Source of the DNA: a virus
Lineage: Duplodnaviria; Heunggongvirae; Uroviricota; Caudoviricetes
IMG/VR virus record: IMGVR_UViG_2671180847_000011
Length of the DNA: 20,048 nt
Reading direction: 5' to 3' (one strand)
Part shown: positions 10,371 through 18,560 of the stretch, piece by piece
Position numbering within the stretch: position 1 is the first letter of the stretch
Layout of the letters: every line of letters begins with the position of its first letter
Program-made: the position numbers and the translations under genes
Notes under the pieces: generated by a model
Seen by the model: the letters and a program-made list of their open reading frames with translations, nothing else
The model's database searches: none
What the model was told of the DNA's origin: nothing

Positions 10371-10478
10371 ATGAAATCAAAAATCAAATCGCTACTGGTC
10401 GCTGGTTATAACCACGGCTGGTTAAGTATTTCGTTTGTCGATTTCTGGTTTAAAAATCTCAATCTGAGGGAATCATGA
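10371..10478 (+). CDS. Small ORF between O and the helicase gene, 35 aa
   Basis: My own translation (MKSKIKSLLVAGYNHGWLSISFVDFWFKNLNLRES); AGGTGA upstream; stop overlaps the helicase ATG (ATGA). May instead be a non-coding linker. Confidence 0.3.
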   Translation: MKSKIKSLLVAGYNHGWLSISFVDFWFKNLNLRES

Positions 10479-12355
10479 CGCCAAGTGAACTTAGCGACCT
10501 GCTTTGGGCGCAGGTTGACAGGGTGGCTCCGCACCTGTTGCCAAACGGCAAGAAAGAGGGGCATGAGTGGGTTGCCGGTAACGTCAATGGTGACAAGGGA
10601 AACAGCCTTAAGGTCAACCTTAGCGGCAAGAAAAAATGGGCTGATTTCGCTGAGGGAGACGGCGGTGACATGCTTGATTTGTGGATGGCATGTCGTGGAA
10701 TTAACCTGCATCAGGCTATGCAGGAAGCGAAAGCATTTCTCGGTATCAAGGATGACGATCACCATTTCGATGCCAAACGTGAGAAAAAATTCTCCAGACC
10801 TGATCGCAAGAAAATCGCCCGCTACGTTACCAGAACAGAATCCCATCTTGAGTACCTGCAATCGCGTGGCATATCGCCAGAAGTCGTAAAGCGCTACGAG
10901 GTTGTCAGCGGCAAGGTGTGGAATGGAGAACGAGAACTTGATGCACTGGTGCTTCCGTACAAACGCGATGGTGAGTTGTTGCAGGTCAAGCGAATCAGCA
11001 CTGAGCGCCCGGACGGGAAGAAAGTCATTATGGCAGAAGGTGATTGCGAACCTTGTCTGTTCGGATGGCAGGCTCTGGACGCTGGCGTAAGGGCGGTTGT
11101 ACTTTGCGAAGGCGAAATTGATTGTATGAGCTATGCGCAATACGGCATCTCGGCGTTATCCGTGCCGTTTGGTGGCGGGAAAGGCGCTAAGCAACAGTGG
11201 ATTGAGTTTGAGTATCACAACCTCGACAGGTTTGAGGAAATATTCATCTCGATGGACGTTGATGATGTTGGTCGTGAAGCCGCAAGGGAAATCGCAAGCC
11301 GACTCGGTGAACATCGTTGCCGTCTTGTTACTCTGCCGTACAAAGACATCAACGAATGCCTGATGAACGGTGTTACCGAGGATGAAATCTGGCAGTACAT
11401 CGGCACGGCATCCTACTTCGATCCTGAAGAACTCTACAGCGCGCGAGAGTTTTACCAGGACACTATCAACGCTTTCTACGGCAAGCAGCAGTATCTGTTT
11501 AATCCACCGTGGGAATCTCTGGCAGATAAATTCCAGTTCCGTGAGGCCGAGTTGACGCTGGTCAATGGTGTGAACGGTCACGGAAAAACGGAGGTTGTCG
11601 GGCATATGGCACTTGAGGCAATGCGTCAGGGTGTGAAGACATGCATCGCGTCACTTGAGCTGAAGCCTGGTATTCTCCTTAAGCGCCTTACCCGTCAGGC
11701 GACGTGCTGCAAGATGCCGCCAGTGCTGGAAATTGACTCTGCATTTAAATTTTATGACGAAAGACTTTGGGTGTTTGGCCTGACCGGAACGGCGAAAGCC
11801 GATAGGCTGATCGAAATATTCGACTACGCTCGCCGCCGATACGGGATCCAGTTATTCATCATCGACAGCCTGATGAAATGTGGCATAGGCGACGATGACT
11901 ATAACGGGCAGAAGGCGTTTGTTGACTCGATTTGCGACTTCAAAAACAAAACAAACTCCCACGTCATTCTCGTTACTCACTCCAGAAAAGGAGACAGCGA
12001 AGAAAAACCAACCGGGAAAATGGACGTAAAAGGCTCTGGAGCGATAACAGACCTGACAGACAACCTTTTCATCATCTGGCGTAACAAGGCTCGCGAGAGA
12101 GCGTTACAGAGGGTTCAGAGTGGTGAAAAGATGTCAGAGAAGGACGAACAGCTACTGGCATCTCCGGCATCTGTTTTGATGCTTGAAAAACAACGTAACG
12201 GCGAAGGTTGGGAAGGTGGTGTCCCGTTGTTCCTTGACGAGCAATCGCACCAGTTCCTGCAACTTGAATCAGGATCGCCATATAGCTACATCGCCAATAT
12301 GCCGAAATCGGAATATGACGAGGCGTGGCGACAGGAAAACGTGACGGAGTATTAA
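10475..12355 (+). CDS. Bifunctional primase-helicase (Toprim domain plus DnaB-like ATPase), 626 aa
   Basis: Toprim-like acidic motifs (VLCEGEIDCMSYAQ; DVDDVGREAA) in the N-terminal half; Walker A GVNGHGKT and Walker B LFIIDSLMK in the C-terminal half. Occupies the lambda P position. Confidence 0.8.
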   Translation: MTPSELSDLLWAQVDRVAPHLLPNGKKEGHEWVAGNVNGDKGNSLKVNLSGKKKWADFAEGDGGDMLDLWMACRGINLHQAMQEAKAFLGIKDDDHHFDAKREKKFSRPDRKKIARYVTRTESHLEYLQSRGISPEVVKRYEVVSGKVWNGERELDALVLPYKRDGELLQVKRISTERPDGKKVIMAEGDCEPCLFGWQALDAGVRAVVLCEGEIDCMSYAQYGISALSVPFGGGKGAKQQWIEFEYHNLDRFEEIFISMDVDDVGREAAREIASRLGEHRCRLVTLPYKDINECLMNGVTEDEIWQYIGTASYFDPEELYSAREFYQDTINAFYGKQQYLFNPPWESLADKFQFREAELTLVNGVNGHGKTEVVGHMALEAMRQGVKTCIASLELKPGILLKRLTRQATCCKMPPVLEIDSAFKFYDERLWVFGLTGTAKADRLIEIFDYARRRYGIQLFIIDSLMKCGIGDDDYNGQKAFVDSICDFKNKTNSHVILVTHSRKGDSEEKPTGKMDVKGSGAITDLTDNLFIIWRNKARERALQRVQSGEKMSEKDEQLLASPASVLMLEKQRNGEGWEGGVPLFLDEQSHQFLQLESGSPYSYIANMPKSEYDEAWRQENVTEY

Positions 12356-15233: not shown

Positions 15234-15418
15234 ACGCCACAATTCAAACGATACCAGAGCTTCTTATCCAGACACGAGGCAATCAGACCGAAGTGGCGAG
15301 GATGCTTTCCTGCGCAAGAGGAACAGTGCTCAAGTACAACCGAGACAGCAAAGGCGAGCGTCACGTAATAGTTAACGGTGTCCTGATGGTCAAACAGGGC
15401 AAAAGGGGAAGGCCATGA
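15230..15418 (+). CDS. ninH: NinH, 62 aa
   Basis: KTIPELLIQTRGNQTEVARMLSCARGTVLKYNRD resembles lambda NinH. Confidence 0.7.
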   Translation: MNATIQTIPELLIQTRGNQTEVARMLSCARGTVLKYNRDSKGERHVIVNGVLMVKQGKRGRP

Positions 15419-16038
15419 GACTCGAAAGCGTAGCTAAATTTCATTCGCCAAAAAGCCCGATGATGAGTGACTCGCCACGGGCCACGGCTTCTGACTCTCT
15501 TTCCGGTACTGATGTGATGGCTGCTATGGGGATGGCGCAATCACAAGCCGGATTCGGTATGGCTGCATTCTGCGGTAAGCATGAACTCAGCCAGAACGAC
15601 AAACAAAAAGCCATCAACTATCTGATGCAATTTGCACACAAGGTATCGGGGAAATACCGTGGTGTGGCAAAGCTCGAAGGAAATACTAAGGCAAAGGTAC
15701 TGCAAGTGCTTGCAACATTTGCTTATGCGGATTATTGCCGTAGTGCCGCGACGCCGGGCGCAAGATGCAGAGATTGCCACGGTACAGGTCGGGCAGTTGA
15801 TATAGCCAAAACAGAGCTGTGGGGGAGAGTTGTTGAGAAAGAATGCGGAAGATGCAAAGGTGTCGGTTATTCAAGGATGCCTGCAAGCGCAGCATATCGC
15901 GCTGTGACAATGCTAATCCCAAACCTTACCCAACCCACCTGGTCACGCACTGTTAAGCCGCTGTATGACGCTCTGGTGGTGCAATGCCACAAGGAAGAGT
16001 CAATCGCAGACAACATTTTGAACGCGGTCACACGTTAG
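15415..16038 (+). CDS. Q: Late-gene antiterminator Q (lambda-type), 207 aa
   Basis: Sequence agrees with lambda Q essentially along its length from memory (MRLESVAKFHSPKSPMMSD...CRDCHGTGRAVD...CGRCKGVGY). Confidence 0.9.
   Translation: MRLESVAKFHSPKSPMMSDSPRATASDSLSGTDVMAAMGMAQSQAGFGMAAFCGKHELSQNDKQKAINYLMQFAHKVSGKYRGVAKLEGNTKAKVLQVLATFAYADYCRSAATPGARCRDCHGTGRAVDIAKTELWGRVVEKECGRCKGVGYSRMPASAAYRAVTMLIPNLTQPTWSRTVKPLYDALVVQCHKEESIADNILNAVTR
15702..15715 (-). promoter_or_regulatory. CII-binding TTGC-N6-TTGC repeat inside Q (paQ-like antisense promoter)
   Basis: Minus strand reads TTGCaagcacTTGC; lambda has its CII-dependent paQ inside Q. Confidence 0.4.
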
Positions 16039-16080
16039 CAGCATGATTGCCACGGATGGCAACATATTAACGGCATAATA

Positions 16081-16120
16081 TTGACTTATTGAATAAAGTT
16101 GGGTAAATTTGACTCAACGA
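16081..16120 (+). promoter_or_regulatory. Late promoter PR-prime with overlapping qut site
   Basis: -35 TTGACT (16081-16086), 17-nt spacer, -10 TAAATT (16104-16109); immediately after Q, as in lambda. Confidence 0.65.
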
Positions 16121-16310
16121 TGGGTTAATTCGCTCGTTGTGGTAGTGAGATAAAAAGAGGCGGCGCTTACTACCGATTCCGCCTAGTTGGTCACTTCGAC
16201 GTATCGTCTGGAACTCCAACCATCGCAGGCTGAGAGGTCTGCAAATGCAATCCCGAAACAGTTCGCAGGTAATAGTTAGAGCCTGCATAACGGTTTCGGG
16301 ATTTTTTATT
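16116..16310 (+). ncRNA. Short late leader transcript (lambda 6S-like) ending at tR-prime
   Basis: Hairpin cccgaaac(16252-16259)...gtttcggg(16293-16300) followed by TTTTTT at 16302-16307 (tR-prime). Start inferred from the PR-prime -10; the transcript is an inference. Confidence 0.55.
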
Positions 16311-16311
16311 T

Positions 16312-16386
16312 GGGTCAGTCGTATAAAGGTCATTACGGAAGGCTGTTAACCTTCTTATCGTGGTTCGAGTCCACGCTGTCCCGCCA
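16312..16386 (+). tRNA. tRNA-like gene, anticodon GUU (Asn) by manual fold, 75 nt
   Basis: Acceptor gggtcag/ctgtccc (one T-T mismatch), anticodon stem gaagg/ccttc with loop ctGTTaa, T arm cgtgg-TTCGAGT-ccacg, 3' GCCA. The D arm pairs poorly, so it may be degenerate. Confidence 0.45.
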
Positions 16387-16391
16387 AACAT

Positions 16392-16467
16392 GCTGGTTTA
16401 GCTCCAATGGTAGAGCAGTCGCCTTGTAAGCGAATGGGTAGCGGTTCAAGTCCGTTAACCAGCACCA
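16392..16467 (+). tRNA. tRNA-like gene, anticodon UGU (Thr) by manual fold, 76 nt
   Basis: Perfect 7-bp acceptor gctggtt/aaccagc, D stem gctc/gagc, anticodon loop ctTGTaa, T arm agcgg-TTCAAGT-ccgtt, discriminator A plus CCA. Confidence 0.6.
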
Positions 16468-16709
16468 TTACTGAGCCGTAGCCACTGGCTATCCTGAATT
16501 CATCAGTGATAGTTATGCTGCGGCCTTCTACACATGACCTTCGTGAAAGAGGGTGGCAGGAGGTTGCGCTAACAACCTCCTGCCGTTTTGCCCGTGCATA
16601 TCGGTCACGAACAAATCTGATTACTAAACACAGTAGACTGGATTTGTTCTATCAGTAATCGACCTTATTCCTAATTAAATAGAGCAAATCCCCTTATTGG
16701 GGGTAAGAC

Positions 16710-17033
16710 ATGAAGATGCCAGAAAAACATGACCTGTTAGCCGCCATTCTCGCGGCAAAGGAACAAGGCATCGGGGCAATCCTTGCGTTTGCAATGGCGT
16801 ACCTTCGCGGCAGATATAATGGCGGTGCGTTTACAAAAACAGTAATCGACGCAACGATGTGCGCCATTATCGCCTGGTTCATTCGTGACCTTCTCGACTT
16901 CGCCGGACTAAGTAGCAATCTCGCTTATATAACGAGCGTGTTCATCGGCTACATCGGTACTGACTCGATTGGTTCGCTTATCAAACGCTTCGCTGCTAAA
17001 AAAGCCGGAGTAGAAGATGGTGGAAATCAATAA
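16710..17033 (+). CDS. S: Holin S (lambda-type, dual-start), 107 aa
   Basis: [34 protein letters not shown]... matches lambda S from memory, with Met1 and Met3 both available as starts. Confidence 0.9.
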
Positions 17034-17493
17034 TCAACGTAAGGCGTTTCTCGATATGCTGGCGTGGTCAGAGGGGACTGATAACGGACGGCAGAAAACC
17101 AGAAATCATGGTTATGACGTCATTGTTGGCGGAGAGCTATTCACTGATTACTCAGATCACCCTCGCAAACTTGTCACGCTAAACCCCAAACTCAAATCAA
17201 CAGCTGCAGGCCGTTACCAGCTTCTTTCCCGTTGGTGGGATGCCTATCGTAAGCAGCTTGGCCTGAAAGATTTCTCTCCGAAAAGCCAGGACGCTGTGGC
17301 ATTGCAACAGATTAAAGAGCGTGGCGCTTTACCGATGATTGATCGCGGTGATATTCGTCAGGCTATCGACCGTTGCAGCAATATCTGGGCTTCACTGCCT
17401 GGCGCTGGTTATGGCCAGTTCGAGCATAAGGCTGACAGCCTGATTGCAAAATTCAAAGAGGCTGGCGGAGCGGTCAGAGAGATTGAGGTATGA
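17017..17493 (+). CDS. R: Endolysin R (lambda-type lytic transglycosylase), 158 aa
   Basis: [39 protein letters not shown]... matches lambda R; its start overlaps the end of S. Confidence 0.9.
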
Positions 17494-17927
17494 ACAGAGT
17501 AACCGCGATTATCTCCGCTCTGGTTATCTGCATCATCGTCTGCCTGTCGTGGGCTGTTAATCATTACCGTGATAACGCCATGACCTACAAAGAGCAGCGC
17601 GATAAGGCCGCATCCACAATCGCTGACATGCAGAAGCGTCAACGTGATGTAGCAGAACTTGACGCCAGATACACGAAGGAGCTTGCTGATGCTAACGCGA
17701 CTATCGAAAGTCTCCGTGCTGATGTTTCTGCTGGGCGTAAGCGCCTGCAAGTCGCCGCCACCTGTGCAAAGTCAACGACCGGAGCCAGCAGCATGGGCGA
17801 TGGAGAAAGCCCAAGACTTACAGCAGATGCTGAACTCAATTATTACCGTCTCCGAAGTGGAATCGACAAGATAACCGCGCAGGTTAACTACCTGCAGGAG
17901 TACATCAGGACTCAGTGCTTAAAATAA
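17490..17927 (+). CDS. Rz: Spanin inner-membrane subunit Rz (i-spanin), 145 aa
   Basis: N-terminal transmembrane segment ([20 protein letters not shown]) then a coiled-coil periplasmic domain; alignable to lambda Rz. Confidence 0.85.
17689..17874 (+). CDS. Rz1: Spanin outer-membrane lipoprotein Rz1 (o-spanin), embedded in the +1 frame of Rz
   Basis: [20 protein letters not shown] has a lipobox Cys at position 20, followed by a Pro-rich segment ([16 protein letters not shown]), as in lambda Rz1; lies wholly inside Rz. Confidence 0.6.
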
Positions 17928-18179: not shown

Positions 18180-18560
18180 ATGAACGACCAGCAAATCGAA
18201 AAAGAAATCGTTGAGAAAGGCAAAACGGCACCGCGAATCACTCCGCAGCACATCGAAGACGTGATTAAAAGCGAGCATTACTTTACTGCTTATGATGGAC
18301 GAAATGGTGCCATTTCCAGCAACGAATATTGTGGCAGGGAAAAACCAGAAGAAGGCGATCGTGATTTATCACCATTGAAGTTGCTCACTTTCTGCGTACT
18401 GGTGCTGAAGAATGGCTTCACCGTCACCGGAGAGAGTGCCTGTGCAAGCCCGGAAAACTTTGATGCAGAAATTGGTCGGAAGATTGCCCGGCAAAATGCT
18501 GTAAACAAAATCTGGATGCTCGAAGGTTACTTGCTGAAGCAGAAGCTAAGCGAACAGTAG
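18180..18560 (+). CDS. Hypothetical protein, 126 aa
   Basis: ORF with upstream RBS, first gene after the lysis cassette; family not recognised. Confidence 0.6.
   Translation: MNDQQIEKEIVEKGKTAPRITPQHIEDVIKSEHYFTAYDGRNGAISSNEYCGREKPEEGDRDLSPLKLLTFCVLVLKNGFTVTGESACASPENFDAEIGRKIARQNAVNKIWMLEGYLLKQKLSEQ

Follow-up and report, generated by a model that had tools for sequence, protein, structure and literature searches.

What do two tRNA genes do in the late leader of a prophage that otherwise resembles lambda at this point, and are they intact genes or remnants? The window analysed here is the whole stretch of 20,048 nucleotides from a Caudoviricetes genome (IMG/VR record IMGVR_UViG_2671180847_000011), in which a first-pass annotation had proposed two tRNA-like genes at 16312-16467 with anticodons GUU and UGU, read by manual folding. 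Across the 20-kb window, ARAGORN detected two tRNA genes and no more, both on the plus strand: a tRNA-Asn (gtt) at 16312-16386 and a tRNA-Thr (tgt) at 16392-16467, matching the proposed coordinates to the base and the same two anticodons. Rfam agreed, with RF00005 scores of 55.3 bits (E = 1e-9) for tRNA-Asn and 61.5 bits (E = 2e-11) for tRNA-Thr against a gathering score of 29, E-values being computed for the whole window, and both sequences cover the full model (positions 1-71 of 71). A sensitive scan of the leader (15950-16750) returned no further RNA families at E <= 1 on either strand.

Both genes encode CCA and possess every cloverleaf stem, U8, A14, G18G19, U33, a 7-nt anticodon loop and a T-loop of the GTTCRA type (GTTCGA/GTTCAA in the two tRNAs). 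The tRNA-Asn carries anticodon GUU, discriminator G73 and a 4-nt variable loop, and the tRNA-Thr carries anticodon UGU, G1-C72, C2-G71 and A73. The identity elements of E. coli AsnRS are G34-U35-U36 and G73, those of ThrRS are G1-C72, C2-G71, G35 and U36, and all of them are found in the respective sequences. Both elements are genuine, functional-looking tRNA genes.

The tRNA-Asn is the less regular of the two. The weak D arm and acceptor mismatch described in the first-pass annotation were also flagged in the Rfam alignment, as the non-standard pairs U13·U22 (D stem) and U4·U69 (acceptor stem), and these had led to the suggestion that the element at 16312-16386 is either a degenerate copy of a tRNA or a remnant of a tRNA-derived attachment site. 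Such an origin would fit the two irregular pairs, the A-rich D loop and a single-sequence fold that is modestly better than shuffles (z = -1.7). However, the gene is full length, with G73, CCA and 55 bits across the full model. Among the 23 variants of this tRNA-Asn, which occurs in at least 120 viral contigs of IMG/VR, it is the most frequent, with 78 of 118 copies identical to it. The two mismatches are constant family traits (18/19 variants for U4·U69, 19/19 for U13·U22), with other pairs covarying around them. A truly degenerate relative looks different: the second element of ST64T scores 42 bits and has a 4-nt anticodon loop.

Comparison with host tRNA genes for attachment-site-like identity also spoke against a remnant. 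The tRNA-Asn is 58% identical to asnT and the tRNA-Thr 69% identical to thrU, neither with a common 3' block, and on these grounds copies of host tRNAs and att remnants were rejected for both genes. A distant BLAST of the pair gave matches in just 1043 of 5426 E. coli genomes, therefore the chromosomal asnT and thrU do not register as matches. Both full-length genes also lie between Q and S, and about 16 kb separate them from xis/int at the left end of the window, which is xis-like. We consider a degenerate or integration-derived origin of the tRNA-Asn very improbable.

Covariation among the viral copies, computed on gap-free variant sets, pointed in the same direction. In the tRNA-Asn, for which columns 10-40 are partly fixed by the search pattern, five pairs were changed on both sides (22 cells) and 90% of cells were paired; 0/500 shuffles matched the observed covariation score, one matched the count of double-changed pairs, and slid controls showed 0-2 pairs with both sides changed. 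The tRNA-Thr had six such pairs (21 cells) with 95% of cells paired, where 0/500 shuffles matched the observed values and slid controls were near zero. Compensatory double changes in excess of both shuffles and slid controls show selection on the four-helix cloverleaf of both tRNAs.

The surroundings of the pair are those of a lambda-type late leader (PR', qut, 6S RNA and tR' in lambda). Upstream, on the plus strand like all features that follow, is the late-gene antiterminator Q (15415..16038; PHROG phrog_127, 7.6e-83; Pfam Antiterm PF03589, 6e-58), which matches lambda Q at its 3' end with 98% identity. The late promoter PR' (16081..16109; -35 TTGACT, 17-nt spacer, -10 TAAATT) is the sole promoter-like site in 15900-16800. 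The end of its -10 hexamer corresponds to lambda 44580, which agrees with the known 6S RNA start, and transcripts would begin near 16116. The intrinsic terminator tR' (16249..16309), formed by a hairpin at 16249-16303 running into a T-run at 16302-16307, ends the 6S-like leader at a position identical to that of lambda tR'; its fold (16240-16312) has an energy of -29.3 kcal/mol (z = -5.6), with 0/200 shuffles as good. The tRNA-Asn begins 2 nt past the T-run, hence the pair does lie, as the first-pass annotation had it, right after tR'.

Alignment to lambda delimits the tRNA module as 160 bp (16310..16469), consisting of TT, tRNA-Asn, AACAT, tRNA-Thr and TT, with both boundaries set by BLAST. 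The left flank (15900-16309) is 98% identical to lambda (403/411), ending at 44781, and the right flank (16470-16800) is 97% identical (321/331), starting at 44946, which makes PR', tR' and the stretch before S alike in the two phages and bears out the lambda-like character claimed for both flanks. The module had further been described as inserted into this leader. The tRNA genes do stand in place of lambda DNA, but the word inserted is imprecise, since the 160 bp substitute 164 unrelated bp of lambda (44782-44945). ARAGORN found no tRNA in those 164 bp, and the idea that they are a decayed tRNA pair was rejected, as they share 83 identities with the module where shuffled sequence averages 83.2.

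Between the tRNAs and S there is a second terminator-like hairpin (16555..16590), with 12 perfect pairs followed by GUUUUG and a fold (16535-16600) of -33.6 kcal/mol (z = -5.2). This hairpin is common to lambda, lying inside the 97%-identical block, and falls under the T-run threshold of a simple terminator scan. The first late-operon protein genes 3' of the tRNAs are those of the lysis cassette (16710..17927; PHROGs phrog_126, phrog_90 and phrog_13; Pfam Phage_holin_3_1), namely the S holin (16710-17033), R endolysin (17017-17493) and Rz spanin (17490-17927). The locus is a clear-cut case of a compact tRNA module flanked by the tandem terminators of a late operon under Q control.

The pair itself is already well known from lambdoid and P22-like phages, being annotated in Sf6, SfI, mEp506, Kapi1, BTP1 and SPN9CC; one or both of its genes are also reported for ST64T, PS3 and phage 21. 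The genome paper of SfI (2013) described the pair and proposed an ACA codon bias (17.3% versus 7.1%) as its rationale. As it stands the present locus matters little: public records of phages and of E. coli already annotate the pair, which has been in print for more than a decade. The module of Sf6, SfI, BTP1, mEp506 and HK446 has near-identical genes (98–100%), Asn preceding Thr across a 5-nt spacer: the tRNA-Thr of Sf6 is 100% identical to that of the window, and the pairs of SfI, BTP1, SPN9CC and HK446 are 98–99% identical to it. In mEp506, Kapi1 and the viral contigs the layout is the same as in the window, with the pair between Q and the holin gene and after a terminator T-tract, and HK446, mEp506 and Kapi1 combine a lambda-type Q/PR'/tR' with the module with no essential difference from the window. 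The HK446 record has no tRNA annotation.

Beyond these phages, the pair covers at least 80% of the query in 59 phage records with Escherichia, Salmonella, Shigella and Klebsiella hosts. Among 5426 complete E. coli genomes, about 361 have the pair, its genes labelled tRNA-Asn and tRNA-Thr by PGAP. Asn-Thr arrays were detected in 91 of the at least 120 IMG/VR contigs with the tRNA-Asn. The module always adjoins a terminator T-tract but is found behind at least two types of tR'. The lambda-like PR'-tR' left flank was seen in only 15 of the 118 viral contigs sampled. The tRNA-bearing arrangement is common among the sampled relatives, mostly after a non-lambda tR'. By this distribution, the module is both widespread and mobile.

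The same slot may hold other tRNAs. Stx phages 933W and 2851 carry the cluster ileZ-argN-argO between Q and stx, after a Q-controlled terminator and upstream of the late and lysis genes, as in the window; these tRNAs differ from those of the window but likewise serve host-rare, phage-enriched codons (AUA, CGA and AGA). Across other phages, the Q-to-lysis slot was occupied by tRNA-Arg-UCU, Ile/Met-CAU, Arg-UCG and Gly-UCC, and the codons these read (AGA, AUA, CGA and GGA) are among the most phage-enriched. The pair is one occupant of a variable tRNA slot in lambdoid phages, the contents of which follow the codons that these phages over-use.

Persistence in such a slot could also come from linkage to the Q/lysis region, with the pair a neutral passenger or an RNA-processing element that does no decoding and offers at most RNase P/E sites at which leader and late mRNA are separated. 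The right flank is indeed tightly linked, 84 of the 91 Asn-Thr arrays being followed by the same TAACTGAGCCGTAG. Phages without the module, such as lambda, are fully viable, and decay occurs in relatives, with the second element of ST64T having a collapsed anticodon loop and phage 2851 retaining just a 24-nt 5' stub of this tRNA-Asn directly after the terminator T-run. However, all stems of both tRNAs are kept paired by compensatory changes, and their anticodon loops, identity elements and CCA have been conserved in different genera; an element used for processing alone would need neither an intact anticodon nor a discriminator base. The occurrence of the module behind different tR'/Q types also argues for selection on the module itself and not hitch-hiking. 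A passenger or processing element is, in our view, improbable.

Our preferred reading, which we consider reasonably probable, is that the pair is expressed from PR' by Q read-through and adds decoding capacity for codons over-used by the phage. The anatomy of the leader indicates that the pair is probably transcribed from PR' with read-through boosted by Q. This is the natural reading because there is no other promoter-like site near and none between tR' and S; no further promoter with at least 8/12 consensus matches, sense or antisense, was found in 16250-16760. RNA polymerase would start at PR', near 16116, and without Q most transcripts would end at tR', just short of the tRNAs. With Q, polymerase would pass tR', both tRNAs and the 16555-16590 hairpin and continue into S-R-Rz and the morphogenesis genes. 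Host RNase P would then cut at G1 of each tRNA, host 3' trimming would expose the encoded CCA, and host AsnRS and ThrRS would charge the phage tRNAs, which could raise the decoding of ACA and AAU/AAC during heavy late-protein synthesis. An RNA-seq paper on the Kapi1 lysogen mentions only antisense signal over the tRNAs.

Codon bias counts in favour of this role. The host rarely uses ACA, and the phage over-uses it about 3-fold: this codon makes up 78 of the 228 Thr codons in the window (34%) compared to 83 of 793 (10.5%) in host core genes (odds ratio 4.4, Fisher p = 7e-16), ranking fourth of 61 codons by enrichment, where the host baseline is 40 K-12 core genes and not the whole genome. AAU is modestly enriched in the window (rank 11-17) and approximately 1.8-fold enriched in the related phage Kapi1, whose late genes use it at 24.1 versus 12.6 per 1000, the third-largest absolute excess; no AAC enrichment was found in the codon comparison. 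Genome-wide, the host uses ACA at about 7/1000 and AAU at about 18/1000, and the phage excess is smaller when measured this way.

Several observations count against a decoding role in late expression. ACA is most enriched in the early genes, whose translation precedes the action of Q: the ACA share of Thr codons is 0.34 in the early genes of Kapi1 and 0.245 in its late genes, and 0.37 in the window up to Q and 0.20 in the few late ORFs present. The more enriched codons AGA, AGG and AUA have no cognate tRNA in the window. Furthermore, lambda and other lambdoid phages among the BLAST matches propagate without the module.

The two anticodons also raise an alternative of a different kind, in which the pair is a counter-defence cassette protecting the phage from tRNA-cleaving host nucleases, candidates being PARIS AriB, possibly P2 Old-type Toprim nucleases, and HEPN anticodon nucleases such as HepS. 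AriB cuts its target tRNAs between positions 40 and 41, beside a U36-A-A-U39 motif, and T5 variants of the three AriB-target tRNAs (Lys, Thr and Asn) rescue infection. The two tRNAs of the window have the anticodons of two of the three main PARIS/AriB targets, Thr(UGU) and Asn(GUU), and both differ from their host counterparts at positions 39 and 41 (UAAGCG versus UAAUCA for Thr, UAACCU versus UAAUCC for Asn). These substitutions are nearly universal in the viral contigs, with UAAGCG in 95 and G39 in 99 of 102 Thr copies, and UAACCU in 116 and C39 in all 118 of 118 Asn copies. The PARIS-neutralising tRNAs of T5 share two of three anticodons with the window and are substituted at the same positions 39 and 41, the tRNA-Thr of T5 also having G39 and its tRNA-Lys differing at both. 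PARIS is, moreover, reported to be protective against lambda, a phage without the module, and HepS of prophage Gifsy-1 also cleaves tRNA-Thr species.

The tandem recurs outside the lambdoid phages. P1 and a phage-plasmid carry the same anticodons in the same order with a 2-nt spacer, with a tRNA-Thr approximately 79% identical to that of the window, a tRNA-Asn of another lineage, and a context that is not the Q/late-leader slot. This recurrence with a different tRNA-Asn lineage counts for the counter-defence reading. In a narrower form of that reading, the Asn-Thr tandem, both lambdoid/P22-like and in its P1/phage-plasmid analogue, might be a dedicated cassette against Toprim-type tRNA nucleases, PARIS AriB and perhaps P2 Old, the classic lambda excluder. 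Variants with mutations at stem positions 39 and 41 would then stand in for two of the three AriB targets, and Q control would time the supply of resistant tRNAs to the very moment at which late proteins have to be made.

The parallel with T5 is incomplete, however. AriB targets tRNA-Lys(UUU) above all, and rescue requires the T5 Lys variant, yet tRNA-Lys(UUU) is absent from the window and from 119 of 120 arrays. T5 is also virulent, with about 25 tRNA genes, and its tRNAs are not close homologues of those in the window. The tRNA-Asn of P1 retains the host-like UAAUCA, a base other than U at position 39 is common in tRNAs generally, making two cases weak evidence, and the G39 variants are homologous and may share G39 by descent. 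The anticodon loops are identical to those of the host, thus offering no sequence evasion of a loop-reading nuclease such as HepS, and the literature examined holds no link between the lambdoid pair and any defence system. We give a counter-defence function limited credence, and regard the narrower form, a dedicated cassette against Toprim-type nucleases, as unlikely. A counter-defence role may, in any case, coexist with codon supplementation.

The match of the anticodons to two of the three PARIS/AriB targets, both with substitutions at the cleavage site, is the one forward-looking point of this locus and bears on whether small temperate phages employ a minimal set of tRNAs against defence systems.

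As a minor observation elsewhere in the window, the ORF at 18180-18560 was considered as a candidate for the Tad2-like Kapi1_043 and rejected (BLASTP E = 0.66); it belongs to the Phage_gp49_66 family.

ARAGORN, which the first-pass annotation had proposed as a check, detected exactly two tRNA genes in the entire 20,048-bp window, both on the + strand: a tRNA-Asn at 16312-16386 with anticodon GTT (GUU) and a tRNA-Thr at 16392-16467 with anticodon TGT (UGU), precisely the positions and anticodons proposed in that annotation. Rfam concurred, both genes matching RF00005 (gathering score 29) over the full model length at 55.3 bits (E 1e-9) and 61.5 bits (E 2e-11), respectively, with E-values calculated for the whole window, both strands and all 4227 families. 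A sensitive Rfam scan of 15950-16750 on both strands found no further RNA. Each tRNA possesses four stems, U8, A14, G18G19, U33, a 7-nt anticodon loop, a GTTCRA T-loop and a discriminator base followed by CCA, which is encoded in both genes as previously noted. E. coli AsnRS recognises G34-U35-U36 together with G73, and ThrRS recognises G1-C72, C2-G71, G35 and U36; all of these elements were found in the corresponding phage tRNA. The tRNA-Thr folds cleanly, as had been remarked, and the weak D arm and acceptor mismatch reported for the tRNA-Asn are the non-standard pairs U13·U22 and U4·U69.

These are real tRNA genes within a Q-controlled late leader, hence the main reading of the first-pass annotation holds. 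The leader is flanked by genes for Q (the late-gene antiterminator), S holin, R endolysin and Rz. BLAST bore out its lambda-like flanks: 15900-16309, spanning the 3' end of Q, the late promoter PR' and the hairpin and T-run of the terminator tR', matches lambda up to 44781 at 98% identity (403/411), and 16470-16800 matches it from 44946 into S at 97% (321/331). Between them, the tRNA module (16310-16469; TT, tRNA-Asn, AACAT, tRNA-Thr, TT) occupies 160 bp in place of 164 bp in lambda, in which ARAGORN finds no tRNA and which aligns to the module no better than shuffled sequence. Rather than being inserted into intact lambda sequence, the module substitutes for part of it in mosaic fashion, so “inserted” should read “substituted”. 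The tRNA-Asn does begin right after tR', 5 nt past the last T of its run. PR' (16081-16109; TTGACT, 17 nt, TAAATT) is the sole promoter-like site in the region, and a relaxed scan from tR' to S on both strands found none. The tR' fold reaches -29.3 kcal/mol (z = -5.6), and a second hairpin at 16555-16590 (a perfect 12 bp then GUUUUG, z = -5.2), common to lambda, is from its modelled fold likely a second late-leader terminator. With tR' upstream, the tRNAs are thus bracketed by two terminator-like structures. A further structured element at 16475-16524, between the tRNAs and S (z = -4.6), is conserved with lambda.

In lambda, PR' is constitutive and most transcripts end at tR' as 6S RNA. As the tRNA-Asn lies only 5 nt past the T-run, read-through and all Q-modified transcription beyond tR' would include both tRNAs. 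In the absence of Q, transcripts that pass tR' could end at the 16555-16590 hairpin, so that lysogens would contain the tRNAs at a low basal level. RNase P cleavage at G1 would form the 5' end of each tRNA, and removal of the 5-nt spacer and the 3' trailer would leave the encoded CCA as the 3' end. The only transcriptomic remark found in the literature on these tRNAs comes from the Kapi1 lysogen RNA-seq paper, which describes a clear signal antisense to them and a similar one in BTP1. No sigma-70-like promoter that might explain an antisense signal (window region 16300-16700) was found on the minus strand of 16250-16760.

The tRNA pair is an already known and annotated feature. In mEp506 and Kapi1, annotated copies lie between Q and the holin gene, and BTP1, SPN9CC and SfI also have the pair annotated; Sf6 carries an annotated tRNA-Thr 100% identical to that of the window, and HK446 matches the entire region at 98% identity, its record leaving the tRNAs unannotated. 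The SfI genome paper of 2013 (PMC3636060) describes the pair and adds that Sf6, ST64T, PS3 and phage 21 carry at least one of the two genes in the same place, with a 1991 paper as its source for phage 21; the Kapi1 paper likewise mentions the pair. Of 5426 complete E. coli genomes, 361 carry it, annotated by PGAP as tRNA-Asn and tRNA-Thr. The pairing of Asn and Thr anticodons also recurs beyond lambdoid phages, as P1 (1425-1578 of the extracted locus) and the phage-plasmid pWP4-S18-ESBL-07_2 (1473-1625 of the extracted locus) both encode tRNA-Asn(GUU) then tRNA-Thr(UGU) with a 2-nt spacer; their tRNA-Asn is of another lineage and their tRNA-Thr is ~79% identical to that of the module.

The suggestion that the tRNA-Asn is a degenerate copy or an integration remnant was rejected. 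Searching IMG/VR with its unusual D arm and anticodon arm returned at least 120 contigs, and ARAGORN on the matched loci gave at least 23 distinct variants of each tRNA; among the matches listed, the window carries the commonest variant of each. The stems covary. Across 19 tRNA-Asn variants, 90% of cells were paired with five double-change pairs (22 cells), although columns 10-40 of this set are partly fixed by the search pattern, and across 21 tRNA-Thr variants 95% were paired with six double-change pairs (21 cells); none of 500 shuffles reached either score. Slid-register controls for tRNA-Asn gave 0-2 double-change pairs, and its compensatory switches include 6-67 and 7-66 (A-U/G-C to G-C/A-U) and 28-42 (A-U to C-G). 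The tRNA-Asn mismatches are constant across the family (18/19 and 19/19 variants), hence they are lineage traits rather than decay. A genuinely degenerate or repurposed partner is found in ST64T (NC_004348), where the element after tRNA-Asn (1591-1659 of the extracted locus, unannotated in the record) is tRNA-like (Rfam 42.1 bits) with an anticodon loop collapsed to ~4 nt and no ARAGORN call.

Comparison with the host, the check proposed for attachment-site identity, showed 58% identity of tRNA-Asn to asnT and 69% of tRNA-Thr to thrU, with no att-like 3' block shared with either host gene. In a distant BLAST with the module, no more than 1043 of 5426 E. coli genomes gave a match; the asnT and thrU copies carried by every strain therefore do not register. 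The nearest relatives outside the module are other phage tRNAs, including tRNA-Thr of N4-like phages (85–87% identity over the full length), tRNA-Thr of P1 and P1-like phages (79%), and tRNA-Asn of T4-like and of jumbo phages (~82–85% over ~55 nt). By sequence comparison, the module tRNAs were not recently captured from the host, nor are they scars of integration. Separately, one IMG/VR contig (1279-1512 of the extracted locus) carries an array of Asn, a chimeric Thr whose first 26 nt are phage-type followed by ~50 nt identical to host thrU, and, 3 nt further, a Gly(UCC) matching host glyT at 74/75 positions, which suggests recombination of a phage array with the host thrU-tyrU-glyT-thrT operon.

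The slot between the Q-region terminator and the lysis genes varies in its contents. Among the IMG/VR matches listed, 118 viral-contig copies had enough upstream flank for a survey, and in these the tRNA-Asn almost always starts directly after the terminator T-tract (…TTTTTTATTT followed by GGGTCAG). Lambda-type PR'-tR' lies upstream in only 15 of the 118, and a different tR' (…GGCTTTTTTTATTT) in ~67 or more; these differing flanks indicate that the module moves among Q/tR' types. The lambda-like right flank TAACTGAGCCGTAG follows 84 of the 91 Asn-Thr arrays among the matches listed. Other contigs among these matches carry Asn-Gly(UCC) (n = 7), Asn alone (n = 6), Asn-Phe-Thr-Arg(UCU) (n = 5) or, for the remainder, other combinations, and larger arrays are annotated in a Klebsiella phage and a fruit-bat faecal virus. 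Carriage of tRNAs is common across the samples examined, and lambda is among the phages without the module. In Stx phages, the same slot holds Ile/Met(CAU)-Arg(UCG)-Arg(UCU). Phage 2851 (Stx2, FM180578; 2501-2534 of the extracted locus) retains a 24-nt tRNA-Asn 5' stub (GGGTCAATCGTATAAAGGTCATTA) directly after the T-run of its own Q-region terminator (…GGCTTTTTTTATTT), followed by unrelated sequence, the Ile/Met-Arg-Arg cluster and stx2; the stub looks like the scar of a replaced Asn-Thr module.

Codon usage supports a role for the slot in supplying tRNAs that would read over-used, host-rare codons. ACA makes up 34% (78/228) of Thr codons in the window vs 10.5% (83/793) in a K-12 sample of 40 core genes (Fisher p = 7e-16); ranked by enrichment among 61 codons, it is fourth in the window and fifth in Kapi1. 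AAU is ~1.8-fold enriched in Kapi1 and has the third-largest absolute excess among codons of its late genes, and no AAC enrichment was seen relative to the host sample. The window is 46% G+C vs 53% in that sample. The top phage-enriched codons are AGA, AGG, AUA, ACA, CGA and GGA, and all except AGG are read by slot tRNAs across lambdoid phages, in support of a general tRNA-supply logic. The SfI genome paper (PMC3636060) reported the same ACA bias but “no obvious bias” for tRNA-Asn(GUU), judged on CAA, a codon that GUU does not read; AAU/AAC were used in our recomputation. The decoding model has weak points: ACA is most enriched in early genes, translated before Q acts; the codons more enriched than ACA have no tRNA in the window; and the host baseline is a 40-gene sample.

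A counter-defence role against PARIS-type tRNA nucleases, compatible with decoding support, is a rather unlikely alternative. AriB, the PARIS nuclease, whose three main targets include Thr(UGU) and Asn(GUU), cuts between positions 40 and 41 beside a U36-A-A-U39 motif, and T5 tRNA-Lys/Thr/Asn variants substituted around this site rescue infection. At positions 36-41, host thrU reads UAAUCA, the window tRNA-Thr UAAGCG and T5 tRNA-Thr UAAGCA, and host asnT reads UAAUCC and the window tRNA-Asn UAACCU. However, position 39 is often something other than U in tRNAs at large, and shared ancestry may account for the G39 variants. P1 and a phage-plasmid also have the Asn-Thr tandem, but the P1 tRNA-Asn retains UAAUCA. 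PARIS reportedly protects against lambda, which lacks the module, and HepS, another prophage nuclease, also cuts tRNA-Thr species; yet no tRNA-Lys accompanies the pair, and the T5 Lys variant was required for rescue in the published experiments. This coincidence with PARIS targets is the only lead that could raise the interest of an otherwise known pair.

Taken as a whole, the window represents a mosaic lambdoid phage, with an excisionase-like ORF at one end and the small terminase gene at the other; the best matches of the window include P22-like (Lederbergvirus) phages such as Kapi1. After Rz, an ORF at 18180-18560 (+) matches Pfam Phage_gp49_66 (N4 gp49/Sf6 gene 66 family, 3.4e-35) and is unrelated to the Tad2-like, highly expressed Kapi1_043 at the equivalent Kapi1 position. 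The replication module (10475-12355, +) encodes a 626-aa primase/helicase fusion (phrog_239, 1.9e-171) instead of a lambda P-type or DnaB-type loader, an arrangement also found in Sf101 and mEp043.
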